This document shows positions 33,766 to 63,224 of a DNA stretch of 64,000 nt, in pieces (position 1 is the first letter of the stretch; the number at the start of each line of letters is the position of its first letter). Source of the stretch: a virus (taxonomy: Duplodnaviria > Caudoviricetes). The notes beneath the pieces are model-generated. The model was given only the letters and a program-made list of their open reading frames with translations, made no database searches and was not told where the DNA came from. A program made the translations under genes and the position numbers. The DNA lies in the IMG/VR virus record IMGVR_UViG_3300024252_000005. One strand, 5' to 3'.

Positions 33766-34714
33766 TCATTACATCCAAAGCCCAGTCGTAATTTCTTGTT
33801 TCTGTATAGCTATAATGACCGTAACCTCCATTGTGATATTTTGTGCTAGACATAGTAATCTTACCTAGAAATAGAATCAAATCTTCTTTTTTAAGCTTAA
33901 TAATGTCATGAAGCCTTGTTAAGCACAAATTTTCAGGAGTTAAAGTGTTGTAGAAATTTTCTTCATATACTTTGTCCCAATCATTAGTCAATACTTTTAG
34001 ACAAAATGAGCTCAAAATCTTTTGATTTCTTTCAGATTCATATAATCCATCAAGGAATTTTTTCCTTGTAAGATACTTTACAATTCTATTTCCTAACAGA
34101 GGAGAATTGCAATGTTCAAGATTCAAAGCTTTTATTGTATCAAACTTTACAGCTTCTTTGTCATAATGAAGAATGAACTTTTTATTTGAAAAAGTTAATG
34201 CATATTTGCAATTCGTAAAGTCAAAATTATTAAAGCATTCTTTTATGTTTTTGTAAAAGAATTTATTTACAAATTGCAGTTTTATATGCTGAATGTTGTA
34301 TGGTCTAAGGCTTTGAGGGGTATTTATATCTAATCCCTTTTTTTCGGGAAAGTTGATATTATTTGAAAAACAACTATCGTAATTTAACTCAAAGCAATCA
34401 TTGATCGAAACTTTCTTTGCAGCTTGATAAAGTTTACCCCTAGTAAATTTCATATAAGCATTTTTAATATTAGATAAGCTAGAACTGAATATGTCTATGT
34501 CGCCATTGCTGTAAAGATATTCTTCAATATACTTATGATTTTTACTTTGTGATAATTTAAATTCATCAAGTGCTACAATTCTTGCAAATCCCCCAGCAAT
34601 CCAAGCATTATCTTTGACTACCCTAACAAGGTTTGTATGACTAAATAGATCTAATAAGTATAAGTTTAGAGAGTTGCTCAAAGGTCTAGATATAATATTA
34701 TTTTGTATATCCAT
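33758..34714 (-). CDS. Pol-beta superfamily nucleotidyltransferase (CCA-adding/poly(A) polymerase head-like)
   Basis: AWIAGGFAR, GDIDIF, FDFTNC. Confidence 0.72.
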   Translation of the reverse strand: MDIQNNIISRPLSNSLNLYLLDLFSHTNLVRVVKDNAWIAGGFARIVALDEFKLSQSKNHKYIEEYLYSNGDIDIFSSSLSNIKNAYMKFTRGKLYQAAKKVSINDCFELNYDSCFSNNINFPEKKGLDINTPQSLRPYNIQHIKLQFVNKFFYKNIKECFNNFDFTNCKYALTFSNKKFILHYDKEAVKFDTIKALNLEHCNSPLLGNRIVKYLTRKKFLDGLYESERNQKILSSFCLKVLTNDWDKVYEENFYNTLTPENLCLTRLHDIIKLKKEDLILFLGKITMSSTKYHNGGYGHYSYTETRNYDWALDVMSG

Positions 34715-34752
34715 TTAATCCTCGCTTTAAAGAATTGTTTATTTATATTAAT

Positions 34753-34782
34753 ATTATATTAAAAAAAAAAAAATGTTGCACG
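34753..34782 (-). promoter_or_regulatory. Repeated phage promoter
   Basis: CGTGCAA-N17-TATAAT. Confidence 0.8.
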
Positions 34783-34902
34783 CATAAATATAATAACATT
34801 TTTTCGATTTACAAATTTATACAAAAAGGTTTTTTAAGTCTAAAGTGTTTAATGTTTCATGATACTTATTACATATAATTTAAATAAAGAAAGCTTATTA
34901 TT

Positions 34903-35373
34903 TTGTCATATACATTTGATATAAGATCTAAAAAACAAACACACTTACAACCTTCAGAAGGAAACTTTTCCGGGCAAACGAGCAGCACTTCTTATACAGA
35001 TGTTTCTGGTACTGAACTTAGTTTTGAGTGTGATACCGTATCTGGATATTCAAAAGTTATATTTGAAATATCTGTACAAACTGGTTGGGGACCAGACGCA
35101 AATAACAATACAGGCGATATGAAGTTACTTGAAAGTTCTGATCAAACAAACTGGTCTGATATAGAAAATTCAAAAGTAAGAATTTCCATGTCAGCATCTT
35201 ATCATGACAGTACTTTTGAACATAAGTTTACATTAAACCCTTGGTCAGGAACTAAGTATTTTAAACTACAAATAAAATCATCTAGCAGCAGTACAGATTT
35301 TAATATCAACAAAAGAGGTAGTAGCACATATCCTTGGCTTACACCACCAACTATCAGTATTAGAGTAATATAA
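34903..35373 (+). CDS. Beta-rich protein, 1 of 3 tandem paralogs (putative virion accessory)
   Basis: Starts (M)SY with TTG; Ser/Thr-rich; LLESSDQTNWSDI. Confidence 0.6.
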   Translation: MSYTFDIRSKKQTHLQPSEGNFSGQTSSTSYTDVSGTELSFECDTVSGYSKVIFEISVQTGWGPDANNNTGDMKLLESSDQTNWSDIENSKVRISMSASYHDSTFEHKFTLNPWSGTKYFKLQIKSSSSSTDFNINKRGSSTYPWLTPPTISIRVI

Positions 35374-35374
35374 T

Positions 35375-35830
35375 ATGTCTTATAATAAATATAAAAACTA
35401 TAATGCTGGAACTACGACTAATAGTTCAACTCAAACAACAACAACAGCGGGTATTGTAGTTAATGGTTTAACCTTTAGCTATATACCTGCAAAGAACTCT
35501 AGTGAAGTTATTTTTGAATACAGCTTTTATGCTGAAAAAAATAACGGTATACCTTTTATACATACTGAGATCGAATACTCAACAGACAACGGCTCATCTT
35601 TTACTAACATTGGAGAAAAATATAAAATGTATAGCTGCTCTGGGCCTTATAATAATTTCTATATACACTATAGAGTTTTATGTAAACTATCGTCATGGTC
35701 AGGTGAAAGAATAATTAGAGTTAAAGCTTTTGAGCATAACTATAGCAGCACAACTAATGTTGCAATACTTCACTATATTTCTGACTTGTCTGAATATATT
35801 AATACAAATTATATTATCTATAGCGAGTAA
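35375..35830 (+). CDS. Beta-rich protein, 2 of 3 tandem paralogs
   Basis: MSY start; IEYSTDNGSSFTNI. Confidence 0.6.
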   Translation: MSYNKYKNYNAGTTTNSSTQTTTTAGIVVNGLTFSYIPAKNSSEVIFEYSFYAEKNNGIPFIHTEIEYSTDNGSSFTNIGEKYKMYSCSGPYNNFYIHYRVLCKLSSWSGERIIRVKAFEHNYSSTTNVAILHYISDLSEYINTNYIIYSE

Positions 35831-35834
35831 ATTA

Positions 35835-36287
35835 ATGTCATATGATTCAAGCCTTCCTATAAATTATCAAATTATTGAAACTGTAAATTCTTCTACACAA
35901 AGTGTATCAAACTCTTCTGTTGAATTAGAAGGTTCTAAAATAGATTATAATTTTTCAATGGGAAACTTTGTTGTATATAAATTTAGTTTTTATATGAATT
36001 GTGATGGAACTTATACATCATCTATATTTAAACTAGAAACTTCTACAGATGATTCCAGTTGGAATCATATTACGGGATGCTCGCTTTTAATTGGCGATGA
36101 TCGAGCAGCTGAAAACCAAAAAACAAATGTTAATATTTTTTTTGTTATTCCTGCTAGTAGTATTTCTAGATACTTAAGAATTGTAGGTTATTCAAAATCT
36201 GCTTCAACTAGTTTTACACTATTTCAAAGTTCATTTGAAGGAACAAACAGATACATAAATTCAATATTAGAAGTATTTACTATTTAA
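35835..36287 (+). CDS. Beta-rich protein, 3 of 3 tandem paralogs
   Basis: Start moved to MSYDSS at 35835; LETSTDDSSWNHI. Confidence 0.6.
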   Translation: MSYDSSLPINYQIIETVNSSTQSVSNSSVELEGSKIDYNFSMGNFVVYKFSFYMNCDGTYTSSIFKLETSTDDSSWNHITGCSLLIGDDRAAENQKTNVNIFFVIPASSISRYLRIVGYSKSASTSFTLFQSSFEGTNRYINSILEVFTI

Positions 36288-36288
36288 A

Positions 36289-36444
36289 TACCATCAACAG
36301 AGATCAAACCGGTACAGCCATAAATACTCCGAGCGGGATTCGAACCCGCAAGCCATAAGGCGCCTGATTTTAAGTCAGGTTTGTCTACCAATTCCAACAT
36401 CAGAGTTAATAATTTACTGCGTCTGCCTATTCCGTCATGGTGGC
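36289..36444 (-). pseudogene. Degenerate tRNA-Leu-type gene split into a 5' half (36411-36444) and a 3' part (36289-36324) around an intact tRNA-Leu
   Basis: 5' GCCACCA TG ACG GAATAGGCAGA CGC A GTAAA TT; 3' TTTATGGCTGT ACCGG TTTGATC TCTGT TGATGGT A; the acceptor halves pair at 6 of 7 positions. Confidence 0.7.
36325..36406 (-). tRNA. tRNA-Leu(TAA), no encoded CCA
   Basis: ACTCTGA/TCGGAGT acceptor, CCTGA CT TAA AA TCAGG anticodon arm, long variable arm, GGTTCGAATCC T-arm. Confidence 0.95.
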
Positions 36445-36600
36445 TTGATTAATGTCATGTTTATGCCAGTCAGGATTACAAATAGTACACCAATTATCAC
36501 ACTTCTTGCAACCGTATATCTCTTGTACGCCTTTGACACACTCATGCAAGAAAAAATCATAAGTTTTTTTGCACTTTTTACATTTTGATTTTTTGCTCAT
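36427..36600 (-). CDS. Small Cys-rich Zn-binding protein (57 aa) missed by the ORF track
   Basis: MSKKSKCKKCKKTYDFFLHECVKGVQEIYGCKKCDNWCTIC...; similar to the C-terminus of 46560..47213. Confidence 0.7.
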   Translation of the reverse strand: MSKKSKCKKCKKTYDFFLHECVKGVQEIYGCKKCDNWCTICNPDWHKHDINQATMTE

Positions 36601-36618
36601 GAATAATATTAACCTTTA

Positions 36619-36691
36619 AGCTAATGATGGGACTCGAACCCAGAACCTCTTGTTTACAAATCAAGAGCTCTGCCAATTGAGCTACACCAGC
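36619..36691 (-). tRNA. tRNA-Thr(TGT), no encoded CCA
   Basis: GCTGGTG/CATTAGC acceptor, CTTGA TT TGT AA ACAAG anticodon arm, GGTTCGAGTCC T-arm. Confidence 0.92.
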
Positions 36692-36772
36692 ATGTTCTTG
36701 TTTAGATTATATATTTACATATTCATATTGTTAATTTTTTTTGTTCTTATGTAATTAATCTCCTTTTTTATT

Positions 36773-36802
36773 ATTATAATATTAAATTAAACTATTTACA
36801 CA
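36773..36802 (-). promoter_or_regulatory. Repeated phage promoter driving the Thr/Leu tRNA cluster
   Basis: TGTGTAA-N17-TATAAT. Confidence 0.72.
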
Positions 36803-36814
36803 TGAGGAAAATGC

Positions 36815-37351
36815 ATGAGAAATAAACCTAATCAAATATCTTGGGATGATGGTAATAGACTATACAGCTTAGAGACTAAAGATATAATACATGTACTTGT
36901 TAGTAATGATGTTCAAGTAAAAAATATCTCTCCAGCTGGTTCATTAAGAAGAAAAAGACATAAAGTTGGAGACTTAGACATTGTAATAGAGGTAGATAAT
37001 CCTAAATTGGCAGGTAAAATACTAGAAGACAAAATGAATTATAATTTTATTGCTAAAAGCTCTTTTTACAAAGGTAAAATTCTTAATACAGGCGTTGACT
37101 TATTTGTTGCAGGCCATCACGATTATTACGCTATGCTATTTTTCTTAACTGGTTGTGAAGATTGGAACTTAAGAATTATGAAATATTTAAAAAACAATAC
37201 TGATATTAGATACACACCATTTCAGTTTATTAATAGTAAAAACAAAAAAGTGTATAAGTTTAACTCAGAAAAAGAAATATTTAAACTAATTAATCATAAT
37301 TATGTATTACCAGTAAATAGAAAACCTAACTACGTAAAATTTGGAGATTAA
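36815..37351 (+). CDS. DNA polymerase X family catalytic core (truncated)
   Basis: AGSLRR...GDLDIVI, VDLF, LTG motifs. Confidence 0.85.
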   Translation: MRNKPNQISWDDGNRLYSLETKDIIHVLVSNDVQVKNISPAGSLRRKRHKVGDLDIVIEVDNPKLAGKILEDKMNYNFIAKSSFYKGKILNTGVDLFVAGHHDYYAMLFFLTGCEDWNLRIMKYLKNNTDIRYTPFQFINSKNKKVYKFNSEKEIFKLINHNYVLPVNRKPNYVKFGD

Positions 37352-39541
37352 ATGAAGTTATTAAGAGAACACTATAAAGAGCTGTTAAACGAAGAAATTG
37401 ATTATTCTTCAAAGTTGGCAACAGTATATCATCTTACAGGATTTAAAACTGAACAATATGATTCTGTTTACGCAAAACTTAAAAAGAAAACGCCTAAAGA
37501 CCTTGAAGGTGAGATTGATGCAAAATATAGCTCAAAGCCAAAGTCTAGAGCACAGAGTATTTTATCTAAAACTGAGTACAAAGCAGGACTTAAAAATTTA
37601 AAAAAATACAAAACATCAGCAGGACAAGCTTATCATATAGCAAGAAATATTAGCAATAATTTATTTGATGTAGGAAGTTATTTTCAAGCAGGCGGTGGTG
37701 CAGCATACGGATCAGGTCTTTACACTTGTTATAGATTAAATCCAAAAATAGCGCAGAATTACGGTAACGTTATTTTAAGGTTTGATGTAGACATATCAAA
37801 CTTTTTAATATTCAATGAAGGAATAGCAAGAAAAATACACGGTAATGATCATTATAAGTTAGACGACCAATTTATGCAAATTCTTAAAAGAAAAGGATTT
37901 AATCTTCGCGGACACTACGAATACTCTGATTCTGTAGAAATGTCGGACGACGCTGAAGAGAACTTAGGTGACTATATTGCTTTGCTCGATCAAATGTCTT
38001 CTTCTGATGCTTTTAAGAATAGTGATTTTAATACAGACGTAAGAACAGCAGATATGGCAAATCATGCTTTGTATGAATTTAGCAAGAAATTTAAAAACGG
38101 CAGTGCTTTAAAACTAAGAGATATCATTGATGGTGTTATATTTTATGGTTATAGTGACGGCCCTGTTTGTGTAATATATCACCCAGAATCTCTAGGAACT
38201 TATAAACTTACAGGTGCAGGTTATTTTAAGAATGGTCGGCCTGTAATAGAGTCAGACATAGAAGCTTTAGTAGGTAGAACAGGAAGAGATCTCGCAAATT
38301 CTTTTCAAACTTCACAAGAACTAGATCAAGATGCTCAAGAGCGAGCTGAAGAAAGAAATCAAAGATTTAAAGATGTTCTTACAAATTACGAAATAAACTC
38401 AAAAACTTCAGAAGAAGAGTTTATCAACAATATTCCTTCAGAACTTACTAGCATTATTGAACCCTTAAGACTGGTACTTGAAGATAATATTCCTGAAGAT
38501 ATTATGATAGAAAGGTTAAGCTCAACTACCAACTGGGATAAATTCTTACAAGGCATGGCAGATTCATATCATTACATTCAATGTATTGTTTCTATACTTG
38601 CTGAGCCAATGTTAAAATTTATTGAACATTTTGGCCCAGGTTTGGAAATAATTAGTGAGGACGAGTTTAAAGAATATTTTAAGTTATTTAAACAATATGC
38701 ACAAAATAAAACTTCTAATGCACCAAAGCTTGCAGATTTTGAGTCTAGAGGTTTGAAGTGTGTAGCACAAAACGAAGAGGAGTTTTCTAATCTTGTTGAT
38801 CAACATTTAGGAAGTCTTATTGAGAATTATAATACAATGTTAAGAGATCAGATAGGCGCATATTTTGTTGACTTCGTAGTTGCAGCCATGTTTGACGGTG
38901 AGACCAGTAGCATTAATAATTCTATTGGCAGATGTACTTTGGATACAATTGATATCAATACTGACAATGATAAAAAAGTTATCGAGAAGCACATGTCAGT
39001 TATTAACAACATACTTTCTAACGTACAAAGCAAGTTAATTGAATTTATTACAAAAACAATACCGGAAAATGTACAATCTGATGAAGGCAAAAATGCAGTT
39101 CGAATAGCATTCAGACATGTAGACGCTTTTGATGAAAATGGCAACATTTTTCTTGATGAGATTATTGAAAGATATGGCTGGTATTCTGATTGGTGTCACG
39201 CTGGTACTGAGTTATTTTATACTATACATGAAACTTTTAACGTAGGTTCTTTCGATGCTTTCACTAGTGAATTAAATTCTTACAAAATTGACAGAGAAAA
39301 ATTTGATCCTGAATTCATACTTCATGAAATGTATGAAGTTCCTAATAATAATTTATTAGGTGATGTATCTGGCTTAGTTCTAGTAATGTTTAAAAACGGC
39401 AAGGATGTCTATAAAAGAAACAACATAATGTCAACTGAATATCTATATAAACAAATTCTTGAATCAAAAGCAACTAATGTAGCATATGCTGTTCAAGAAC
39501 AATTTTATGTAGGCTCGCCTGGGGGAAGCATTGATATTTAA
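37352..39541 (+). CDS. Large protein with N-terminal ADP-ribosyltransferase-like domain
   Basis: VYHLTG, YGSGLYT, AQNYG, IDGVIF...VCVIYHP; leader MKLLREHYKELLNEE. Confidence 0.7.
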   Translation: MKLLREHYKELLNEEIDYSSKLATVYHLTGFKTEQYDSVYAKLKKKTPKDLEGEIDAKYSSKPKSRAQSILSKTEYKAGLKNLKKYKTSAGQAYHIARNISNNLFDVGSYFQAGGGAAYGSGLYTCYRLNPKIAQNYGNVILRFDVDISNFLIFNEGIARKIHGNDHYKLDDQFMQILKRKGFNLRGHYEYSDSVEMSDDAEENLGDYIALLDQMSSSDAFKNSDFNTDVRTADMANHALYEFSKKFKNGSALKLRDIIDGVIFYGYSDGPVCVIYHPESLGTYKLTGAGYFKNGRPVIESDIEALVGRTGRDLANSFQTSQELDQDAQERAEERNQRFKDVLTNYEINSKTSEEEFINNIPSELTSIIEPLRLVLEDNIPEDIMIERLSSTTNWDKFLQGMADSYHYIQCIVSILAEPMLKFIEHFGPGLEIISEDEFKEYFKLFKQYAQNKTSNAPKLADFESRGLKCVAQNEEEFSNLVDQHLGSLIENYNTMLRDQIGAYFVDFVVAAMFDGETSSINNSIGRCTLDTIDINTDNDKKVIEKHMSVINNILSNVQSKLIEFITKTIPENVQSDEGKNAVRIAFRHVDAFDENGNIFLDEIIERYGWYSDWCHAGTELFYTIHETFNVGSFDAFTSELNSYKIDREKFDPEFILHEMYEVPNNNLLGDVSGLVLVMFKNGKDVYKRNNIMSTEYLYKQILESKATNVAYAVQEQFYVGSPGGSIDI

Positions 39542-39822
39542 TCTTCAAATGCGATTTTGATATCATTATAAGGATCATTTGTATTTGCATAAAACAATGC
39601 TAGTTTACCTTTGTCGTTCAATAAACGAAAAACGCACTTACAATAGAAGCCATTCTCAACTTCTTTATGTATAACCAAATGAACATTGTTGTTTTTGCCT
39701 TTCTCATAGTTCATTCCTGTAATTTCTACTAAGTCACCAACTTTTATTTGGCCATACATGAAATAAAAACTCGATATACTTTTGAAATTAAATTTATGTG
39801 AATCATAGAATGATAATAGCAA
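39538..39822 (-). CDS. Hypothetical protein
   Basis: QIKVGDLVEI small beta-barrel pattern. Confidence 0.6.
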   Translation of the reverse strand: MLLSFYDSHKFNFKSISSFYFMYGQIKVGDLVEITGMNYEKGKNNNVHLVIHKEVENGFYCKCVFRLLNDKGKLALFYANTNDPYNDIKIAFED

Positions 39823-39849
39823 AAAGTATTCTAAGAAGGAAATTTATTA

Positions 39850-39999
39850 ATGAAAAATAATAATGTATTGCAAAGATATATTGAAAATATTCTATTAGAA
39901 ATAGCATCAATTGGAAAACAATCTAACTTTAAGCTAGAAGAAGAAATAGAAAGTCTTGAAAGAAGACTAATTCATATGCAAACGCATGAGAATTATTAG
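39850..39999 (+). CDS. Small protein (49 aa) with the virion-type leader, missed by the ORF track
   Basis: MKNNNVLQRYIENILLEIASIG...; AAGGA RBS. Confidence 0.55.
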   Translation: MKNNNVLQRYIENILLEIASIGKQSNFKLEEEIESLERRLIHMQTHENY

Positions 40000-40023
40000 T
40001 TAACACACTAGACAGGACTTGAA

Positions 40024-40063
40024 CACGCCTATCTGGACTCGAACCAGAACTCTTGGGCTTAAG
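40024..40063 (-). pseudogene. 3' half of a split tRNA (Arg-type identity)
   Basis: CTT AA GCCCA AGAGT TCTGG TTCGAGT CCAGA TAGGCGT G: perfect T-stem; acceptor strand pairs with 41085-41091. Confidence 0.8.
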
Positions 40064-40150
40064 CACCTCCTGGAGGATTCGAACCTCGCACTCTCCAATT
40101 CCCCTATATTAATGAGACCGGCTTAGAAGGCCAGTGGGGATGCAGAAGGC
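40064..40150 (-). ncRNA. Atypical D-armless tRNA-like RNA with TCT (Arg) anticodon
   Basis: 8-bp acceptor GCCTTCTG/CAGGAGGT; CTGGC CT TCT AA GCCGG; 4-bp T-stem GAGG TTCGAAT CCTC; an 8-nt linker replaces the D-arm. Confidence 0.75.
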
Positions 40151-40247
40151 ATATAACAATATTATTATTTTTTTGTTTATTGTTAAATTATTTTTGCATT
40201 AACATTGATCTAAGCATATTTATTATATGTTCAAGTTGAGGATAAAT

Positions 40248-41057
40248 ATGTATTGCAATAAATGTGAAAAAGAGATACCCAAAAAAGAAGCTGGTAATCA
40301 TAAAAGATGGTGTGGAAATAAAAAAACTATTAAAGATTCTTACTGTAAGATATGTAATTCTCCAATAAAAAACACAAGAACAAACTCAGTTAGAAAATAC
40401 TGTGCTAGAGAATGTTTTAACAAAGGAGTATATACTAAAGAGTTTAAACAAAAAATATCTAATAGCAGAAAAAAATATCTTAAGGAAAACCCTAACAGTC
40501 ATCCTTGGTGTAAAGAAAACAAATTTAAGTCTGCGCTAAAGAAGTTTCTTAAGGAAAATAATATAGACTTCATTGAAGAGCACCAGCCTCTGAAAGATAG
40601 ATTTTTCTCTATTGATATTGCCATACCAGAAGTTATGTTTGGAATAGAAGTAAATGGTGAGCAACATTATAATAGGGATAAAACTCTTAAGAAATATTAT
40701 CAAGAAAGACATAATTTAATTAAAGCACAAGGTTGGGTGATATATGAGATTCACTACTCTAAAGTTTATGACGATATTTTTTTATCGAGTTTAATTGAAA
40801 GAATAAGAAAAAATAATTTTAATAACTTTACAATAGACTTTGAGTTACGTAAAAACAAAGTTAAAAGAAGAAAAAATGTAAAGGAAGTCTCTCTAAAGCA
40901 TAAAGAAGAAAAAGCTAAAAAGTTGCTTGAAACAAGATTAGAACATATTAGTAAGGCTGAAAAGAATTGGGGTTGGATTTCCAAAGCTTCTCGAGATCTA
41001 GATATAAGTCATACTCATGTAAGAAGGCTCGTAAACAAGTATCTTTCTGATGCGTAA
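40248..41057 (+). CDS. Free-standing homing-type endonuclease (Zn fingers, Vsr/DUF559-like PD-(D/E)xK domain, C-terminal HTH)
   Basis: CNKC, CKIC...YCAREC; FSIDIAI...GIEVNGEQHY...GWVIYEI; GAGGA RBS before ATG 40248. Confidence 0.82.
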   Translation: MYCNKCEKEIPKKEAGNHKRWCGNKKTIKDSYCKICNSPIKNTRTNSVRKYCARECFNKGVYTKEFKQKISNSRKKYLKENPNSHPWCKENKFKSALKKFLKENNIDFIEEHQPLKDRFFSIDIAIPEVMFGIEVNGEQHYNRDKTLKKYYQERHNLIKAQGWVIYEIHYSKVYDDIFLSSLIERIRKNNFNNFTIDFELRKNKVKRRKNVKEVSLKHKEEKAKKLLETRLEHISKAEKNWGWISKASRDLDISHTHVRRLVNKYLSDA

Positions 41058-41091
41058 AGGCCCCTGCTTTATCCTATTAAGCTATAAGCGC
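41058..41091 (-). pseudogene. 5' half of a split tRNA (Arg-type identity)
   Basis: GCGCTTA TA GCTT AATAGGATA AAGC A GGGGC CT; ends at U33, exactly at the endonuclease stop codon. Confidence 0.8.
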
Positions 41092-41095
41092 TGAA

Positions 41096-41141
41096 TAGAT
41101 CTTTAATCAGAATTACTATTATTCTTTATATTAAAGATCTA
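41096..41141. repeat. Perfect 12-bp inverted repeat between tRNA elements
   Basis: TAGATCTTTAAT (41096-41107) and ATTAAAGATCTA (41130-41141). Confidence 0.85.
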
Positions 41142-41143
41142 AA

Positions 41144-41216
41144 TGGGCACCCTGGGATTTGAACCCAGAATCGACGCTTTATGAGAGCGCTGCCTTAACC
41201 CTTTGGCCAGATGCCC
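41144..41216 (-). tRNA. tRNA with CAT anticodon, probably Ile2 (lysidine type); no encoded CCA
   Basis: GGGCATC/GGTGCCC acceptor with C4-G69 and A73; GCGCT CT CAT AA AGCGT. Confidence 0.9.
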
Positions 41217-41256
41217 ATATAAGACCTTTTTGCTCTAACTACTGGGCTATAGGCCC
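41217..41256 (-). pseudogene. Degenerate 5' half of a tRNA-Ile-type gene
   Basis: GGGCCTA TA GCCC AGTAGTTA GAGC ... CT TAT, running directly into the intact CAT tRNA. Confidence 0.65.
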
Positions 41257-41317
41257 GTTAAAGGTGCTAAAAGCACCTAGATAATTATATAATCAAACTT
41301 TTAAAAGTTTAACAATA

Positions 41318-41704
41318 TTAACGTGGAGATACAACAAAAGTTTGATTATTAACTTGGTATGTATTAGTAATTCCTGAAGAATTGTAATTTTGTGCAACTT
41401 GCTGAATCCTTCTCAATTGATCATTAATTCTATGAAGCTTGATAAAACTCCCATTATTAGGCTTTCGATAATTAACACATGTATACTTAGATCGATTACG
41501 TGTTGTAGTTGTAGTTGTGCTGTTGTTTGACGCTGTTACAATCTTTTCATTAGTCTTAATAATTCTATTAATAGTTCCATTCCTGTTTGCTGAGTAATAA
41601 ACGCCTGGGTTCTGTGTATCCATAAACATCATTGTACCGTTGCTAATCTGGCGAACTGTTGAAGTCTCAATAAAACGATTTGTGTCAAAATTTGTGTTTC
41701 CCAT
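41318..41704 (-). CDS. Paralog family C protein
   Basis: FIETSTVRQISNGTMMF. Confidence 0.7.
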   Translation of the reverse strand: MGNTNFDTNRFIETSTVRQISNGTMMFMDTQNPGVYYSANRNGTINRIIKTNEKIVTASNNSTTTTTTRNRSKYTCVNYRKPNNGSFIKLHRINDQLRRIQQVAQNYNSSGITNTYQVNNQTFVVSPR

Positions 41705-41759
41705 AAAATGTACCTTTCTTATGGTGTTGAAATATTTGGGTTACTTAGCACTTACTATA

Positions 41760-42062
41760 TTATAGTAAATCTAAGTCAGAAGAACGAATAAATATGAATT
41801 CGCTCTCATCGGAATCATCTACGACAATAGTGATTCCACCTATTGAAAACAATAAGCACTTAAAACTTTTTTTACTTTTAGCAAAATAAATAGTTCCTAT
41901 CTTATTAGCAATATTCATTATCTTGCTATAAGATTCAATATTCTCTTTGCTATTTTCAATACAAACAATATCTTCTATATTTGATCTCAAGATAGAAGAT
42001 ATTTCTTTTGTCAACATATGCTTTTTATTCTGGATATTGTTTTTGTTTTTGCTAATATTCAT
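41760..42062 (-). CDS. Hypothetical protein
   Basis: ORF downstream of a promoter copy. Confidence 0.55.
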   Translation of the reverse strand: MNISKNKNNIQNKKHMLTKEISSILRSNIEDIVCIENSKENIESYSKIMNIANKIGTIYFAKSKKSFKCLLFSIGGITIVVDDSDESEFIFIRSSDLDLL

Positions 42063-42102
42063 TTTTTTCTTTAAAAAGCATGTTGTTTTAATTTATATTA
42101 TT

Positions 42103-42132
42103 ATTATATAATGTGATTCAAATATTTACACA
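42103..42132 (-). promoter_or_regulatory. Repeated phage promoter
   Basis: TGTGTAA-N17-TATAAT. Confidence 0.72.
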
Positions 42133-42335
42133 TTATATAATAATTAATTTTTCTTAGCTAAACTCTTTCCCTTAATGTGCAACGGCTTGTCAGAAAAGTC
42201 AATGTACTGAATATTGTTATTCATTTCTGAATATTCTTTGTATGATAATACAATACCCATCGATGTAAGCATTATTAGTGATGATAAATAATACGTAACT
42301 AACTTGTTTTTCATTTTTATTCTTTCTATGTAGAT

Positions 42336-42641
42336 TTAATCAATGCTGTTAAGATTGTCAATATGAAGCTGTAGAATATCGTTCCAATAAAATTCTTCTT
42401 GTCCTGACCCAAAATTGACTACAGTAATTTCTGCAGAGCCATAGTCTATTTCAAATGTATACTTAATCTCACTATCAGAAACAATTTCTGTATAAAAGTA
42501 TTCTGGTAAATCATTATTTTCAAAAGTCTCGCTAGACATATTAACGTTAAATCTTTCTTCTAACTCTGGAATAATAAACAATGCTCTTTTTTTAATATCC
42601 ATTTTATTCTTAACCCTTTTGTCTTGAATGATATATATCAA
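42336..42641 (-). CDS. Hypothetical acidic protein
   Basis: ORF; true start probably MDIKKR. Confidence 0.6.
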   Translation of the reverse strand: MIYIIQDKRVKNKMDIKKRALFIIPELEERFNVNMSSETFENNDLPEYFYTEIVSDSEIKYTFEIDYGSAEITVVNFGSGQEEFYWNDILQLHIDNLNSID

Positions 42642-42885
42642 TATCTTTCCAATTTAAATTGTTTTCTTTTATTGTTAGTACTATCATTTTTGCTTTATCG
42701 TTTAAAATCAACATCTTGTCATCTAGTGGGTTTATTAAATAATTAAGCTTTCTAACACTTGCAAGAAAATTTAGCAAGTATTTTTTTGTAATTACAGTAG
42801 ATTCGTTTACTTCTTTAGATAAGCAAACACCAGTATCAGTAAGAACATGAATTTTAATTGTATTCAACTTTAAATTTGCTTCCAC
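42610..42885 (-). CDS. Hypothetical protein
   Basis: ORF with GAGGAG upstream. Confidence 0.55.
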   Translation of the reverse strand: MEANLKLNTIKIHVLTDTGVCLSKEVNESTVITKKYLLNFLASVRKLNYLINPLDDKMLILNDKAKMIVLTIKENNLNWKDIDIYHSRQKG

Positions 42886-42935
42886 TTACAAAACATATAT
42901 TTCTCCTCTTTTAGCAAAAACGAACTATAAACAAG

Positions 42936-43121
42936 CTATGCTTCAATTCCGTAATAGTAATAAATAATTCGTGTAATAGATATAAACCAAAAACAAATCG
43001 ACATGCCTGCAACAAGCAAGCTATCAGTTTTTATGAACATATAACCTCCAAAAACATAACCTAAAATAAAAGCTATCATCCAATAAGGACTAATTACAAC
43101 AACGTCAACATTTTCAATCAT
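42936..43121 (-). CDS. Small two-TM membrane protein
   Basis: Hydrophobic segments; promoter copy upstream. Confidence 0.6.
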   Translation of the reverse strand: MIENVDVVVISPYWMIAFILGYVFGGYMFIKTDSLLVAGMSICFWFISITRIIYYYYGIEA

Positions 43122-57811: not shown

Positions 57812-58180
57812 TCAATAATAAAACCTAATCAACTCAATAAACTTCTCCAATAACATATAATCACTCTCTAACTCATACTGATCAGCTAACTCAGGATCAC
57901 ACACAATCTCTACTCCCTCCCTTAACAATATCTCAAATAACTCCTCACACGCCTTCTCATACTCCACTCCCATATCATAACTTATATATATCACCTCATC
58001 ATATACTCCATCACTTACCCCTACCTTGTAACCCTCATGCTGAATCAATACTAAACTACCATCTACTCGCTCAATAGTTCCACAACCACTCGGCGGAGAT
58101 CTATAATCCACAACAAATAATACCCTCCCCTCCAAACATAATCTACTCATAACCAAAACCTTTCTATTCTTATTCAACAA
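57812..58180 (-). CDS. Hypothetical acidic protein
   Basis: ORF in the skewed block. Confidence 0.5.
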   Translation of the reverse strand: MLNKNRKVLVMSRLCLEGRVLFVVDYRSPPSGCGTIERVDGSLVLIQHEGYKVGVSDGVYDEVIYISYDMGVEYEKACEELFEILLREGVEIVCDPELADQYELESDYMLLEKFIELIRFYY

Positions 58181-58421
58181 GTGGCCAAAAAGACGTTCTG
58201 TGGGAACTTCTCAAAAAACATATGTTATACCTTATCTAGTTTATTCTAATTAAACGTAGATTAACGTCGTAACTGTTAACGCAACGCTAGGCTGATGACT
58301 CGGGACAAAGCTGAGCGCTGACTCGGAATATGAATCTCTATTCATTAGACTTTTTTTGACACCGGGTTGCGCAGAAGCTAGATCAATAGCTGTGCTACGT
58401 GCGCAGAATCGGCATAGAGCT

Positions 58422-58700
58422 TTAGATGGGATTATTGGTATTGTATTCGCGGAGAGCTTCGGCGACTTCTAACATTCCCGTCAGTGCTTTTCTGGTTGTG
58501 ATCTCGCGCTGATCAAACTTTCGTTTAGTCGACTGCACACCAGATGTTTGACCTTGTATTACCATGGATCTCATTACTTCGAGAGCAAGCTCTGAATCCT
58601 CTTCCCTGACATGAAGGTGTATTCTTCGGTCGCCGGGTGCGATATCGATGTAGGCTATGGCATACTTTGATTCAGTGTTAATGTTTCGAATTGAGGGCAT
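58422..58700 (-). CDS. Hypothetical protein
   Basis: AAGGA RBS; first gene of the higher-GC block. Confidence 0.7.
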   Translation of the reverse strand: MPSIRNINTESKYAIAYIDIAPGDRRIHLHVREEDSELALEVMRSMVIQGQTSGVQSTKRKFDQREITTRKALTGMLEVAEALREYNTNNPI

Positions 58701-58728
58701 ATTTTATTTCCTTATAATGCTATAGTTT

Positions 58729-58953
58729 TCAGAGATTATCCATATACTCCGTGACATCCCTTGCAACATCTTCGTATGAATCTGTAACATGGATGCATTT
58801 GCCGTTGTTAAAGTGTATCCAGCAAGTCTCGCCCAGCTTTTCAATAGTATTCTCTTTGCACTGATTGACATGAGAGATAGAGTCGAAGGGGACAAGAACG
58901 TTGATGTTAGAGTTGACTGTATTGTATGTTGTGTATCGTGAAGCGTTTGTCAT
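58729..58953 (-). CDS. Hypothetical protein
   Basis: AAGGAT RBS. Confidence 0.7.
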   Translation of the reverse strand: MTNASRYTTYNTVNSNINVLVPFDSISHVNQCKENTIEKLGETCWIHFNNGKCIHVTDSYEDVARDVTEYMDNL

Positions 58954-58978
58954 GATGATGATCCTTTATTTATTTAAG

Positions 58979-59021
58979 AAAAGCTGCGACTAGATCTATG
59001 CGCAAGTAGATTAAAAGTTGT
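58979..59021. repeat. Hairpin-containing intergenic repeat, copy 1
   Basis: AAAAGCTGCGACTAGATCTATGCGCAAGTAGATTAAAAGTTGT. Confidence 0.8.
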
Positions 59022-59036
59022 GTAGCGAACGAAGAG

Positions 59037-59243
59037 TTAGTCTTCGCTATTTTCGTCTAGTTGTTGTTGTAAGAGTAAGACATGGTTCATAATAGAAATG
59101 GCGATCTCTATGTCACCATCGATGAAAGCACTGTTAACTTTACCTTGAAGTGCTTTCATCTTTTTACGGATCTCTTGTTTATTAAAATATTGCTTTTTAA
59201 GTTTTTTGTTATCGCGAGGTTTGTGATTATCGGATTGAGACAT
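59037..59243 (-). CDS. Hypothetical protein (start moved downstream of the promoter)
   Basis: MSQSDNHKPR...; the ORF-track start lies inside the promoter. Confidence 0.65.
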   Translation of the reverse strand: MSQSDNHKPRDNKKLKKQYFNKQEIRKKMKALQGKVNSAFIDGDIEIAISIMNHVLLLQQQLDENSED

Positions 59244-59277
59244 ATCATCCACCTTGTGTGTGTGTTGTTGTTGATAT

Positions 59278-59307
59278 ATTATATCAATGATATTATGTAT
59301 TTGCACG
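59278..59307 (-). promoter_or_regulatory. Repeated phage promoter
   Basis: CGTGCAA-N17-TATAAT. Confidence 0.8.
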
Positions 59308-59365
59308 TCGGGTTGATGACGCAGAGGGTTGTAGCCTCGAGGCTGCTTTTTCCCTGGGTGAAGAC

Positions 59366-59584
59366 TTAGTTTTGTTTAGGGTACATGAGTAGTTGAGCTT
59401 CGTGAGAAGACATCCAGTGGATATTCATTGCGTCGCCATCGTCGAAGACTTCTTGTCCGCCGCGAATATGAATTGGTTCTTTGAAGTCGATGGTTTGAAC
59501 AGGAGGCATGTTGTGTTTAACTGCGAAGAAAGCGCCAATTGAAAGAGTAAAGGAGATGAGGAGTGCGATTAAGTTACCTTGCAT
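59366..59584 (-). CDS. Small N-terminally anchored membrane protein
   Basis: LIALLISFTLSIGAFFAV. Confidence 0.65.
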   Translation of the reverse strand: MQGNLIALLISFTLSIGAFFAVKHNMPPVQTIDFKEPIHIRGGQEVFDDGDAMNIHWMSSHEAQLLMYPKQN

Positions 59585-59610
59585 ATGTAGATCTTTCTTT
59601 AGTGTAGTGA

Positions 59611-59925
59611 TTAAATAAATAGTGCAGAAGCGACTAGGTTTAGCCAGGGAGAAGTCTTAGCGTTGTTATTCTTTGCTGGTTCATGTGTAACCTTGCACAC
59701 TTCAGCCCTTTGAATATCCTTGTAATATCTTGCTGTTAGCTCATCCTTGCATTGTAGAGCTTCTTGGGCATCGTTAAAATAGAAGCATCGTGAAGGTTTC
59801 TTCATGTCTGGGTGAAGTAATACATGAACTGCGAAAGTGTACTGTTCAGATGAGCTAAGCCATGAGACTTTGTCACCGTGAGAGTTAATAGCGATATTGT
59901 AGTATGAAGCGTGTTCGTCAAACAT
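59611..59925 (-). CDS. Hypothetical protein
   Basis: ORF downstream of hairpin repeat copy 2. Confidence 0.65.
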   Translation of the reverse strand: MFDEHASYYNIAINSHGDKVSWLSSSEQYTFAVHVLLHPDMKKPSRCFYFNDAQEALQCKDELTARYYKDIQRAEVCKVTHEPAKNNNAKTSPWLNLVASALFI

Positions 59926-59950
59926 ATTGTTAGCCTTGTAATGTTATTGT

Positions 59951-59993
59951 AAAAGTTGCGACCAGATCTACGCAAAAGTAGATCAAAAGCTGT
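59951..59993. repeat. Hairpin-containing intergenic repeat, copy 2
   Basis: AAAAGTTGCGACCAGATCTACGCAAAAGTAGATCAAAAGCTGT. Confidence 0.8.
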
Positions 59994-60036
59994 TTCTTCT
60001 TATTTAGGATGACACGTTAGCGTTGATATACGCGAG

Positions 60037-60252
60037 TCACTCTGTATCTAGACTGTACCAATCATTGACCAACCAGCCATGCTCATCGCTCAGCGCGTCT
60101 GTAACTTGGAAAAGTGTAACTGTGCTCATGTCTTCGAAGTAATCAGATAGATCAACTTCGAGTGGCACTCCGTTAGCATTAGCAAATTGATCATGCTCTT
60201 CAGGTGTATGATTGGAAGGTAAGTCGAAGTCCCATTGGATTTGAATGATCAT
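60037..60252 (-). CDS. Paralog family B protein
   Basis: IQWDFDLP...VPLEVDLSDYFED...VTDALSDEHGWLVN. Confidence 0.8.
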   Translation of the reverse strand: MIIQIQWDFDLPSNHTPEEHDQFANANGVPLEVDLSDYFEDMSTVTLFQVTDALSDEHGWLVNDWYSLDTE

Positions 60253-60288
60253 GTTGATCCTTGATTGTTTGGGTAGTGGTGATGGTTT

Positions 60289-60319
60289 ATTATAATATGA
60301 TATTAAGTTGGATTACACG
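60289..60319 (-). promoter_or_regulatory. Repeated phage promoter cassette
   Basis: CGTGTAA-N18-TATAAT then AAACCATCACCAC. Confidence 0.85.
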
Positions 60320-60396
60320 TTAGAGCTGTCGACCAATATTTTTACCTAATCTATGCTTGAATAGTTAAAGTAGTGTTAGCTATATGTGTAACGATA

Positions 60397-60708
60397 TCAC
60401 ATGCTCCAATAAGACTCTGATGAAGGTGAGCAGTAAGAAGGTGTATTATACCTTTCCTTATACTCTTCACCTGACATCATGTTCTTTCGAATGACATAAG
60501 TTTCGTAGATATTTGTAACAAAGCGCTCAGCTTCAGGATACTGTGCTTTACATAATTCTTCAACTTCTTTCCTGCTCAATCCTTCATGATCATGAAATTC
60601 AACAAATCTTAATCCAGCCTTGTTCTTTCCCGAGCGAATAGACTTAGACCTAGATGTAATACGATTGTCTTTTTTGTATACTTCAACAGTAAATTGATTA
60701 GTTGTCAT
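60397..60708 (-). CDS. Paralog family D protein
   Basis: Ends TPSYCSPSSESYWSM. Confidence 0.8.
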   Translation of the reverse strand: MTTNQFTVEVYKKDNRITSRSKSIRSGKNKAGLRFVEFHDHEGLSRKEVEELCKAQYPEAERFVTNIYETYVIRKNMMSGEEYKERYNTPSYCSPSSESYWSM

Positions 60709-60756
60709 ATTAAAGCTTTCTTGGTTGATTGATTTTTTGATGTTGCCTTATGATAT

Positions 60757-60787
60757 ATTATACACAACGAATTAACTAGTTTACACG
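60757..60787 (-). promoter_or_regulatory. Repeated phage promoter
   Basis: CGTGTAA-N18-TATAAT. Confidence 0.82.
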
Positions 60788-60828
60788 CACAGAGTGCGAC
60801 GATGCCAGCCGTTGCCAGGCCAAGTCAG

Positions 60829-61239
60829 TTACTTCATGATGAGGGTGTGGCCAGGATTAGTGAATCGGCCGCGATACCCCTTGTAGTTAGCTGAGATACG
60901 ATCGATCATATCCATCCGAGCTTGAGCACAAGGTTCTTTGATAACTTTTTTAGAATTGAATCCCCACTGAGTTGGAATGCTCTTGCGACGATTGATAACG
61001 AACTGATCTTGGACCTTGTAGGTCTTAGACACACCTTCAGGTGGAGGAAAGGAGTTATAGATAGGATTGGTGTATTCTGCGTTGATCTCACGTCGTACGT
61101 AGCCATTAGCATATGAGATGTAAGATACTTTATGTTGTTGGCAGAAGAACTGTTGGTTGCCGCGACGTGCTTGGACTGGTGTTGTGGTCTCGATGAGGTT
61201 TGTGTTTTGAGGCTGAATGGTGTGGATATTGGTGTCCAT
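60829..61239 (-). CDS. Paralog family C protein
   Basis: LIETTTPVQARRGNQQF...SYANGYVRR. Confidence 0.75.
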   Translation of the reverse strand: MDTNIHTIQPQNTNLIETTTPVQARRGNQQFFCQQHKVSYISYANGYVRREINAEYTNPIYNSFPPPEGVSKTYKVQDQFVINRRKSIPTQWGFNSKKVIKEPCAQARMDMIDRISANYKGYRGRFTNPGHTLIMK

Positions 61240-61274
61240 GATGGTCCTTATTGGATGAGCGGTGTTGATGGTTT

Positions 61275-61305
61275 ATTATAATATACGTGTTATTTAAGTT
61301 GCACG
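61275..61305 (-). promoter_or_regulatory. Repeated phage promoter cassette
   Basis: CGTGCAA-N18-TATAAT then AAACCATCAACAC. Confidence 0.85.
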
Positions 61306-61318
61306 ACCTAGTTATAAC

Positions 61319-61585
61319 TTAGCGCTTGATGAGCATATTTTCGTTGTTGAAAAAGTGTGCGTATGTGACAGCAAAAGAATCTACAAACTCTCTCTTTCGA
61401 TTATAGATGCACACATTGTAATCGTTATGCAGTTTCATCGATCGTGTTGTCATGCTCTTGCCTGAGTCAATGTCAGTAACTAAAACCTTGTGACCAGTAG
61501 CGAACGGTGCTTTGGAGCTTAGCCATAGAACGTGAGCCTGTAGAGGTTTAGGTGTGTCAACAATAATAATGTTTTGTGAATCCAT
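61319..61585 (-). CDS. Hypothetical protein
   Basis: Promoter cassette upstream. Confidence 0.7.
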   Translation of the reverse strand: MDSQNIIIVDTPKPLQAHVLWLSSKAPFATGHKVLVTDIDSGKSMTTRSMKLHNDYNVCIYNRKREFVDSFAVTYAHFFNNENMLIKR

Positions 61586-61620
61586 GATGATCCTTATTGG
61601 ATGAGTGGTGGTGATGGTTT

Positions 61621-61651
61621 ATTATAATATGGAAGTTAACTTAGTTACACG
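61621..61651 (-). promoter_or_regulatory. Repeated phage promoter cassette
   Basis: CGTGTAA-N18-TATAAT then AAACCATCACCAC. Confidence 0.85.
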
Positions 61652-61673
61652 ACGTGGGTTGGCGAGAGGATTG

Positions 61674-61859
61674 TTATAGATAGATTCCTCTGCTGATTTG
61701 AGACTTAAGCGACTCCTTGCGTTGCGAGATGTCTTCAAGCTTACCGGTCAAACCGTTTTTGTGTAGCTCTTTAGTGTAAGAAGCTGTAGCTTGACGAAGT
61801 AACTCTTTGAGTTCGTTGCGAGTGTGGACGATGATCATTGATTGTTTGTTGGAGTTCAT
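61674..61859 (-). CDS. Hypothetical protein
   Basis: Promoter cassette upstream. Confidence 0.7.
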   Translation of the reverse strand: MNSNKQSMIIVHTRNELKELLRQATASYTKELHKNGLTGKLEDISQRKESLKSQISRGIYL

Positions 61860-61891
61860 GTTGAACCTTATTGTTTGGGTGGTGATGGTAT

Positions 61892-61922
61892 ATTATAATA
61901 TGATTATTAACTTAGTTGCACG
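61892..61922 (-). promoter_or_regulatory. Repeated phage promoter cassette
   Basis: CGTGCAA-N18-TATAAT then ATACCATCACCAC. Confidence 0.85.
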
Positions 61923-62223
61923 AAGGCTCGTGCCATGCGTAGTTATTGATGAGCCAGCCGAATTCGTCGCTGAGAGCATCAGTGATTTGCTCAGGTGAAA
62001 CACTTCGTGGGTCTTCAAAGTAATCAATGAGATCGACTTGTTGTGGGACACCGAATAACATTGAAACGTCTCGTTTATACCCAGCTAATCGCTCGGGATC
62101 TTCCAGGATGACCTCGATGTCTCCTTCAGATAGACCAAGCATCTCTTGAGTTTGTTCATCCTGTTCGATGTCAAACTCCCAGTCAATGTTAATGATTGTT
62201 GATTGTGTGTTTGGTGTTTCCAT
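61912..62223 (-). CDS. Paralog family B protein (start moved to METPNT)
   Basis: IDWEFDI...VPQQVDLIDYFED...ITDALSDEFGWLIN; the stop lies next to the following -35 box. Confidence 0.8.
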   Translation of the reverse strand: METPNTQSTIINIDWEFDIEQDEQTQEMLGLSEGDIEVILEDPERLAGYKRDVSMLFGVPQQVDLIDYFEDPRSVSPEQITDALSDEFGWLINNYAWHEPSCN

Positions 62224-62263
62224 TATATTAAATCCTTTGTTGGATAAGTAGTGGTGATGGTTT

Positions 62264-62294
62264 ATTATAATATATGTGTTATCTAAGTTACACG
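62264..62294 (-). promoter_or_regulatory. Repeated phage promoter cassette
   Basis: CGTGTAA-N18-TATAAT then AAACCATCACCAC. Confidence 0.85.
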
Positions 62295-62334
62295 AATAGG
62301 GTTGATGACGCCGCTGGTTGAACGGCCAAGACAA

Positions 62335-63141: not shown

Positions 63142-63188
63142 ATTGAATCCTTATTTATTGTTGGTTTGAAGGTGTGCCTTATGGATGT

Positions 63189-63219
63189 ATTATATGTTAT
63201 GTTGATTGAAACTTACACG
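63189..63219 (-). promoter_or_regulatory. Repeated phage promoter
   Basis: CGTGTAA-N18-TATAAT then ACATCCATAAGGCAC. Confidence 0.82.
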
Positions 63220-63224
63220 CGGTA

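Follow-up and report, generated by a model that had tools for sequence, protein, structure and literature searches.

Nuclease genes are known to take one of two routes, either hidden in a self-splicing intron or intein or parked beside the gene that they target. Here we describe a locus that points to a third route for a homing endonuclease into an essential gene, namely inside the gene while bringing a spare copy along. The locus lies in a 64,000-nucleotide (nt) stretch of the Caudoviricetes record IMGVR_UViG_3300024252_000005 (IMG/VR), hereafter called the window, where a canonical tRNA-Arg(UCU) gene on the minus strand (41091..40024) has probably been invaded, and recently so, by a cassette that combines a homing-endonuclease gene with a linked and unusual replacement tRNA-Arg(UCU) gene.

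Several described systems share part of this layout. SegB of T4 and T6 is a free-standing GIY-YIG homing endonuclease in a phage tRNA cluster (Brok-Volchanskaya 2008, as cited in PMC13096335). According to the citing paper, it cuts the tRNA genes of relatives, with preferred inheritance of the tRNA region and rearrangements there. In the window, too, a nuclease gene stands free within the tRNA array of a phage; however, in that same account segB lies between tRNA genes and its enzyme recognises a T-loop-like motif, whereas the window nuclease is Vsr-like, sits inside the loop of one tRNA and is accompanied by a spare of the same anticodon. I-Bth0305I belongs to the EDxHD (Vsr-like) homing endonucleases, a group also known from 'fractured genes', where a host gene is broken in two by a free-standing gene for a Vsr-like nuclease (PMC3239194, PMC2677866). 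It is the best structural match of the window nuclease core, a likeness of fold, and both come from phages or metagenomes. Fractured genes restore their product through a group I intron or split inteins, while in the window there would be no splicing but a separate replacement gene, and the target would be an RNA gene.

Group I introns with homing endonucleases also occupy the anticodon loops of bacterial tRNA genes, such as I-Ssp6803I in tRNA-fMet (PMC3984707), and true examples are present in two of our comparison loci (L023 and L068). They share with the window an anticodon-loop insertion with a linked endonuclease, but the window insert has no ribozyme, its open reading frame (ORF) is antisense, and the host tRNA would be dead and replaced rather than spliced. 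Finally, in collaborative homing the free-standing F-CphI gene adjoins a psbA intron that lacks an ORF (PMC6083498, PMC2988022), so that a nuclease gene stands beside a target allele protected by an interruption at the cleavage site. Loci L040 and L070 have a similar arrangement, whereas in the window protection and rescue would come from a different gene copy and not from an intron. No published description of a cassette in a tRNA gene rescued by a gene of the same anticodon was found in the literature searched; what sets the window apart from these systems is that a tRNA gene has taken up an insertion without an intron and that a linked gene with the same anticodon would come to its rescue.

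The split tRNA-Arg(UCU) gene and its cassette

We compared the window with 70 loci fetched from IMG/VR and about 15 metagenome loci (numbered with the prefix L). Relics were placed with a hidden Markov model (HMM) of canonical Arg tRNAs, run in nhmmer, in which the HMM position equals standard numbering plus one. Read along the minus strand, the locus consists of a 5' relic, an antisense ORF, an AT-rich spacer, a tRNA-like gene of non-canonical ('rewired') layout, a 3' relic and an extra T-arm fragment:

41057..41091, minus strand: 5' relic spanning G1 to U34, from a canonical tRNA-Arg(UCU) gene (nhmmer, positions 2-35 of the Arg HMM)
40062..41056, no strand assigned: inserted cassette of 995 bp, absent from intact alleles
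40227..41057, plus strand: endonuclease ORF of 276 aa, read as a free-standing homing-endonuclease gene, antisense to tRNA-Arg
40150..40226, no strand assigned: AT-rich spacer between the diverging endonuclease and tRNA(UCU) genes, read from the sequence and conserved in L001
40064..40149, minus strand: non-canonical ('rewired') tRNA-Arg(UCU) gene of 86 nt (covariance model R1, 43.4 bits, E 4.6e-10)
40024..40061, minus strand: 3' relic spanning U36 to the discriminator, from the split canonical tRNA-Arg(UCU) gene (nhmmer, positions 37-72 of the Arg HMM)
40001..40023, minus strand: older T-arm/acceptor relic, which directly follows the intact tRNA-Arg in the cassette-free L206

Intact alleles were searched for on metagenome contigs with a pattern consisting of the 3' relic preceded by a 7-nt loop. 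Nine contigs carry such an allele, with the halves contiguous in 9/9, the loop CTTCTAA and an ARAGORN call of tRNA-Arg(tct). The insert is therefore 995 bp long and lies between U34 and U36 in the anticodon loop, with C35 removed. L206, a syntenic relative, aligns with the window on both sides of the insert, at 94% identity over 1789 nt and at 82-87% further out; the two tRNA-Arg halves are contiguous there and 995 bp apart in the window. The 5' relic (41091..41057) has 34 of 35 bases in common with the intact allele (L206 5758-5792), and the 3' relic is covered by a 61-nt alignment to L206 5794-5854 at 98% identity. Since the window halves differ from the tRNA-Arg of L206 by one base, the insertion is recent, while the T-arm fragment at 40001..40023, present in L206 as well, is older than the cassette. 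When rejoined with a 7-nt loop, the two relics yield a tRNA that ARAGORN accepts. We rejected tRNA-Lys(UUU) as the disrupted gene, despite relics ending in CTTT and a slightly higher Lys HMM score, as the intact alleles read CTTCTAA.

The cassette block (40062..41056) is 87% conserved in L001 and encodes the nuclease and one tRNA, with nothing else and only about 160 non-coding bases. The stop codon of the endonuclease ORF overlaps U34, the last base of the 5' relic, and the spacer includes a GAGGA ribosome site ahead of its ATG. An Rfam search of 34000-43000 at E up to 10 returned no ribozyme (RF00028 included), while the same search does detect the group I intron in L023. With no detectable ribozyme, the nuclease gene is thus free-standing and not an intron ORF. 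A scan of 10 ORFs in the neighbourhood gave no integrase or transposase domain; both tRNA-Arg halves are single-copy, and no 3' tRNA segment is duplicated at the ends of the element. The ARAGORN scan, which misses the cassette gene, gave no other tRNA for AGA in the window, where AGA is the commonest Arg codon of the long ORFs (73%).

The endonuclease family and signs of homing

The cassette protein displays Cys/His zinc-finger-like motifs at the N terminus, a Vsr-like nuclease core and a C-terminal helix-turn-helix (GW..SHTHVRR). Its Pfam matches are weak (REase_MTES_1575, RAP); 103 homologues were collected at E up to 1e-3, and residues D130, E141, N143, Q146, H147, H162 and H176 are invariant in their alignment (A2). 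Foldseek matched the AlphaFold model (predicted local distance difference test, pLDDT, 83.9) best to the catalytic domain of I-Bth0305I (3r3p, TMt 0.67-0.73, probability 1.0), followed by Vsr (1vsr, TMt 0.52) and a DUF559-like structure (3hrl, TMt 0.56). As judged from this model, the 276-aa protein is a nuclease of the Vsr/I-Bth0305I fold. In many loci with the nuclease gene on the same strand, the start codon and the stretch just ahead of it are covered by an inverted repeat similar to the T-loop sequence (CATTCGAACC ... GGTTCGAATG; L019 1935-1990, L018, L022, L039, L046, L206 5180-5232), which may form a hairpin that hides the ribosome site.

The family is closely associated with tRNA genes, which lie within about 2 kb of the nuclease gene in 74 of 82 sequences (81 fetched loci, some of them duplicates, plus the window). 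The nearest tRNA feature is Arg-type in 41 of the 64 distinct nuclease loci; about 18% of the tRNA features in these loci are of Arg type. Of the other loci, most carry an Arg gene at the opposite flank of the nuclease gene. As neighbours there are canonical tRNA-Arg(UCU) genes, the rewired form, and tRNA-Arg genes with a loop insertion of 190-225 nt. Such insertions interrupt the anticodon loop of otherwise canonical tRNA genes in L040 (1427-1713) and L070 (1662-1928), both Arg-UCU and both adjoining the nuclease gene, as well as in L018 (1465-1747, Thr); Rfam did not recognise these three insertions as group I introns. Two further arrays that hold a Vsr-like nuclease contain a tRNA-Leu(UAA) with an intron-like insert of about 680 nt carrying an HNH-motif ORF (L068 682-1449) and a tRNA with a group I intron confirmed by Rfam at 59.8 bits (L023 1391-1589).

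The breaks recur at the same place. Arg 5' relics stop after C32-U33-U34 (HMM positions 34-35, end ...CUU) in seven contexts that are independent of one another, namely the window, L001, L202, L203, the L019 group, L048 and L167, and Arg 3' relics begin at HMM positions 36-37 in the window and L001, L002, L005 and L038. L048 has the simplest layout, with an Arg 5' half, the nuclease gene and an intact canonical tRNA-Arg(UCU). An earlier note on this DNA had proposed a mobile element that delivers a tRNA of the class it disrupts, together with a linked DUF559/Vsr-like nuclease, and had taken a lack of bias towards the anticodon loop in other genomes as evidence for random debris instead. The Arg case agrees with the proposed element, as an endonuclease cassette lies in the anticodon loop of tRNA-Arg(UCU) with a tRNA of the same anticodon, and empty-site alleles exist; and the Arg break recurs at the same point in unrelated contexts, so that other genomes do show a positional bias.

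Presence or absence of insert sequence is polymorphic at the same locus in three comparisons. Besides the window and L206, the L001 locus has insert-free forms in L208 and L212, with a tRNA-Lys, an intact tRNA-Arg and the same downstream relic. L133 and L019 are 97-99% identical, but L133 is without 780 bp that hold the nuclease gene, between 9-bp direct repeats, and keeps an Arg 5' relic and the replacement tRNA. The cassette itself is found in differing tRNA contexts (window, L001, L002, L005, L201, L202, L203 and L204). In L001 and L202 the 3' half is as in the window while the 5' halves are different, and in L001 the native 3' half has been kept but combined with a 5' half from a different tRNA-Arg. 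In our reading of the sequences, the acceptor of this foreign 5' half and that of the L201 3' relic are complementary strands, and the chimera fits what co-conversion from a donor within another tRNA-Arg allele would leave. Exact-pattern searches returned neither an empty-site form of the L005 locus nor an intact form of the 5' half of L001.

A second nuclease type is found at the same gene. L206 carries, at the tRNA-Arg gene that is split in the window, a 173-aa HNH-like ORF (in the region 5140-5756, weak HNH_3 match) that ends 6 nt upstream of the intact tRNA-Arg and is preceded by a 14-nt tRNA 5' fragment. In the C-terminal helix-turn-helix it shares 44% identity with the window enzyme (E 2e-6). 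Two nuclease types, one DNA-binding module and one tRNA gene suggest that the tRNA-Arg gene is the target. In the window and its relative of 94% identity, different nuclease types occupy the same tRNA gene. The nuclease family, whose modular C-terminal DNA-binding domain recurs in an HNH enzyme, may serve as a source of site-specific nucleases directed at a tRNA gene. Downstream of tRNA-Arg, the same T-arm/acceptor relic (GTAGGTTCAAATCCTAC...) occurs in many related genomes, with or without the cassette (L001 5766-5796; L207-L212), and is a fixed older scar.

These observations can be combined in a homing model. During co-infection with a phage that lacks the cassette, the enzyme would cleave that phage's intact tRNA-Arg gene in or close to the DNA of the anticodon loop, and the break would be repaired from the cassette-bearing genome, with the relic halves acting as homology arms. 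The cassette would in this way be copied in and its own target site destroyed. With no ribozyme to splice the halves, it would fall to the linked tRNA to keep AGA decoding alive, and the rewired gene would probably be immune to cutting because the normal sequence is missing on both sides of its anticodon arm. Such a cycle would explain the litter of half-tRNAs in phage tRNA arrays and the fast turnover of tRNA-Arg(UCU) genes.

The rewired tRNA

The replacement gene in the window received no call from ARAGORN or Rfam. It consists of an acceptor, a 4-bp helix (CCCC/GGGG) around the anticodon arm (loop CTTCTAA), the motif AATTGGA and a T arm, with no canonical D-arm hairpin between position 9 and the anticodon arm, and it is conserved with compensatory changes in L001, L002 and L005. 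Rfam scores for rewired relatives are 30-39 bits, and the Infernal alignment of one of them deletes the D-arm and places a 17-nt insertion in the variable region.

A pattern scan identified at least 119 rewired tRNA-Arg(UCU) loci in IMG/VR (L082-L200; alignments A5 and A7). The seed, 12 sequences aligned with MAFFT, has four helices: an acceptor of 7 bp, a 3-bp helix, an anticodon stem of 5 bp and a T stem of 5 bp. In the 3-bp helix, the strand after U8-A9 pairs with the strand 3' of the anticodon arm. Within the seed, 99.2% of cells are paired and 19 of 20 pairs show compensatory changes, a result reached by none of 500 shuffles. Across 96 distinct rewired sequences, in an alignment fitted to the model, 96.9% of cells are paired, and the new helix reaches 98.3% with all three of its pairs covarying. 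The acceptor stem, the 7-nt anticodon loop and the T arm with its GTTCRANYC loop are retained, again with support from covariation. Model R1 gives rewired genes 41-90 bits and canonical tRNAs 36 bits or less. Minimum-free-energy folding was discarded as support, the tRNA-like region folding no better than shuffles (z -0.35), and the structure therefore rests on covariation instead.

The class shares single-stranded motifs, with GTA after the acceptor, then GTAATTGGA, then ATG ahead of the T stem, and many copies end in an encoded CCA. Among the fetched loci the rewired form also occurs with the anticodons CCU, UCG and ACG (Arg), GAU and UAU (Ile), and CAU. A canonical tRNA-Arg(tct) is present as well in 14 of the at least 119 rewired loci, whose arrays average 6 tRNAs. 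An origin of the rewired tRNA as a by-product of the nuclease was rejected, as a nuclease lies near only 6 of these independently found copies. Phage isolates carry the rewired tRNA too, mostly unannotated, and one pair annotates it as tRNA-Ser; isolates with a relative of the gene include Stenotrophomonas phage SOVA965, Agrobacterium phage Atu_ph04 and Limnohabitans phage DC31.

In canonical tRNAs, the core is held by contacts of U8 with A14, of R15 with Y48 and of G18/G19 with the T loop, and A20 is an identity element for arginine. On the basis of these contacts we infer a strand-swapped, isosteric core for the rewired class. The chain would run from the acceptor through U8-A9, a strand in the role of D-stem 22-25, the anticodon arm, a strand in the role of 10-13, the D-loop and U48 to the T arm, with A14 A15 U U G18 G19 A20 as the proposed D-loop residues. 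Three joints of the chain would be swapped relative to the canonical order (9 to 22, variable region to 10, and 21 to 48); they connect neighbours in the canonical L-shape, and the fold could therefore be preserved.

Known non-canonical tRNAs include the allo-tRNAs (8/4, 9/3), tRNA-Sec and the D-armless mitochondrial tRNAs (PMC5389517, PMC7609411). They resemble the rewired class in that the 7/5 cloverleaf is abandoned but the acceptor, anticodon and T elements are retained. The rewired class differs in that the strand following U8-A9 pairs 3' of the anticodon arm, and AATTGGA follows and runs into the T stem; keyword searches in these two papers gave no description of this topology. It is about as likely as not that the Arg-like gene encodes a functional tRNA with an architecture that has not been described before. 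It may in addition double as a cleavage-immune allele, letting tRNA-targeting homing endonucleases destroy the canonical tRNA-Arg without cost. The class is large and mostly unannotated, its core being wired differently while the conserved nucleotides of the tertiary contacts are kept. If its members are charged and decode, bacterial translation would be known to accept a wider range of tRNAs, phage tRNA counts based on ARAGORN would be too low, and natural scaffolds for the engineering of orthogonal tRNAs would be at hand.

Older relics, alternative explanations and genomic setting

Two further relic-bearing arrangements lie in the same array. ARAGORN and Rfam call three tRNAs in the window, all on the minus strand (Leu(UAA), Thr(UGU) and CAU), two of which adjoin these relics:

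41217..41256, minus strand: Ile(UAU)-type 5' tRNA relic that includes the full anticodon loop (read from the sequence)
41143..41217, minus strand: intact tRNA with a CAU anticodon, Met or Ile2 (ARAGORN; Rfam 62.4 bits)
36411..36444, minus strand: Leu-type 5' relic (12 of the 15 best library matches are Leu; nhmmer, Leu HMM positions 2-32, weak E of 0.73)
36325..36406, minus strand: intact tRNA-Leu(UAA) (ARAGORN; Rfam 55.1 bits)
36289..36324, minus strand: decayed Leu-type 3' relic with variable arm, T arm and acceptor (TTATGGCT and a T-arm/acceptor layout as in the intact Leu)
36691..36619, minus strand: tRNA-Thr(UGU) (ARAGORN and Rfam)

The Ile relic keeps its whole 7-nt loop (CTTATAT, anticodon UAU) and abuts G1 of the tRNA(CAU) at 41216..41144, so that the break falls after position 38, and no 3' relic is present. 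The same arrangement occurs in L206, where 6 of the roughly 37 relic positions differ and the tRNA(CAU) is unaltered; no nuclease accompanies it in either the window or L206. The relic reads as old, decaying debris. In the Leu nest the order is 5' relic, ATTA, intact tRNA-Leu(UAA) and 3' relic. The outer acceptor strands of the relics pair at 6 of 7 positions, which is expected in about 1% of cases by chance. The 3' relic begins in the variable arm (shared TTATGGCT) and not in the anticodon loop, and the break at U33 is uncertain because the last 12 or so nt of the 5' relic resemble the native spacer upstream of the L210 tRNA-Leu. L210 shares with the window the tRNA-Leu itself (81%) and nothing else, and has no relics; an exact-pattern search for relatives of the window tRNA-Leu found none, and no close relative of the Leu nest was obtained. 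A 57-aa ORF (36600..36427) runs into the 5' relic with its last codons. This ORF (window 36427-36600, minus strand) is Cys-rich with several CxxC pairs and matches no family; as a decayed nuclease it was rejected, with an hhalign probability of 12%.

The earlier note had counted three disrupted tRNA genes with an incoming tRNA of the same class, each broken at or just after U33, with the Leu and Ile cases as homing relics that lost their nuclease, and had taken the like-for-like pairing as a sign of mechanism. All three cases are in the sequence on the minus strand. The Ile case lacks a 3' relic, and the breaks differ: after U34 for Arg, after position 38 for Ile, and uncertain for Leu. Neither the Leu nor the Ile case has a nuclease, although loss of one is seen elsewhere, in L133 relative to L019. 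As for the pairing, purifying selection would leave it too. TTA is the commonest Leu codon of the window's long ORFs (43%) and ATA a near-tie for the commonest Ile codon (44%); with AGA, ATA and TTA all common, a broken tRNA would be tolerated only if a copy of the same function exists. Plain deletion combined with selection for decoding of these codons explains the like-for-like pairs equally well. The Leu and Ile relics are real, older debris in the same array, for which a homing history with loss of the nuclease is possible.

The same reasoning could be extended to the whole array, with random duplications and deletions giving all three cases and the nuclease as a mere neighbour. The fetched tRNA arrays are indeed full of fragments, many starting near position 44, the Ile relic is old, common to L206 and broken after the loop rather than at U33, and selection on decoding alone would leave matched pairs; but the Arg insert is exact against nine intact alleles, the ...CUU end is repeated in seven independent contexts, the nuclease family is tied to tRNA-Arg genes and the chimeric relics fit co-conversion, which together make undirected debris improbable. 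We regard as very improbable that the Arg halves form a functional split gene, joined after transcription through an unrecognised intron or through protein splicing or ligation, with the inner tRNA-like RNA as intervening sequence. Both halves are nearly unmutated and rejoin to a canonical tRNA, and intron-bearing tRNAs occur near relatives of the nuclease (the group I intron of L023, 59.8 bits, and the tRNA-Leu intron of L068 with its HNH ORF). Against this, the Rfam search found no ribozyme, only some 160 bases are non-coding, the ORF is antisense, a simple join yields no UCU anticodon since C35 is missing, and the halves are decayed, truncated or lost in L002, L005 and L201. Insertion by an integrase or transposase at a tRNA attachment site has hardly any probability in its favour: tRNA genes, anticodon loops included, are classic integration sites where tRNA fragments are left behind (PMC9897764), but the nearby ORFs scanned hold no such domain, the cassette encodes a nuclease and a tRNA only, and integrases duplicate the 3' part of the tRNA whereas the halves here are single-copy and separated.

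For the rewired RNA, an unlikely but more serious alternative is that it does not decode and serves instead to decoy the anticodon nucleases of the host, acts in processing or regulation, or is no more than a cleavage-immune, non-functional copy; the cassette would then bring no true replacement. It is missed by ARAGORN, its relatives reach only 30-39 bits with Rfam, it has no canonical D-arm, and L203 is wholly without it. Such a role is at odds with the strong covariation in all four helices, the conserved anticodon loop and AATTGGA and ATG motifs, the CCA encoded in many copies, the presence of a canonical tRNA-Arg(tct) in just 14 of the at least 119 rewired loci, and the want of another AGA tRNA in a window where AGA makes up 73% of Arg codons. 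Several observations nevertheless weigh against a homing cassette with a replacement tRNA. The 5' relics of L002, L039, L046, L204 and L206 end in the D-loop and form a second junction class; several loci have a relic-free canonical tRNA-Arg adjoining the nuclease gene, which would have to escape cutting; L203 holds a split tRNA and the nuclease without a replacement tRNA; and a nuclease is nearby in 6 of the at least 119 rewired loci, while 113 of those listed have none. The Foldseek E-values are weak (5e-3 to 0.1), and searching PDB sequences with a nuclease profile returned nothing relevant, only a spurious chitodextrinase match. It is position that points to the anticodon loop as the putative target and cutting site of the nuclease, and charging of the rewired tRNA and its decoding of AGA are predictions from sequence.

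The window has a G+C content of about 30%, climbing from there to 40-42% across the last 6 kb (58000-64000), and has the appearance of part of a large phage. A blastn comparison with 50,697 phage records gave tRNA-length matches only, with no close isolate among them. Between the tRNA groups lies a 729-aa ORF (37352-39541, plus strand) that keeps 68% DNA identity in L205 and L208; it has no Pfam or PHROG match, and a relative search with this neighbour protein found nothing. Other ORFs of the window match PHROG families for a DNA ligase, a helicase, an HNH endonuclease and an adenylosuccinate-synthetase-like enzyme. The last of these (9848-11119, plus strand) matches PHROG 1211. The annotation of this adenylosuccinate-synthetase-like family names a PurZ-type enzyme, which hints at modified adenine in the phage DNA.

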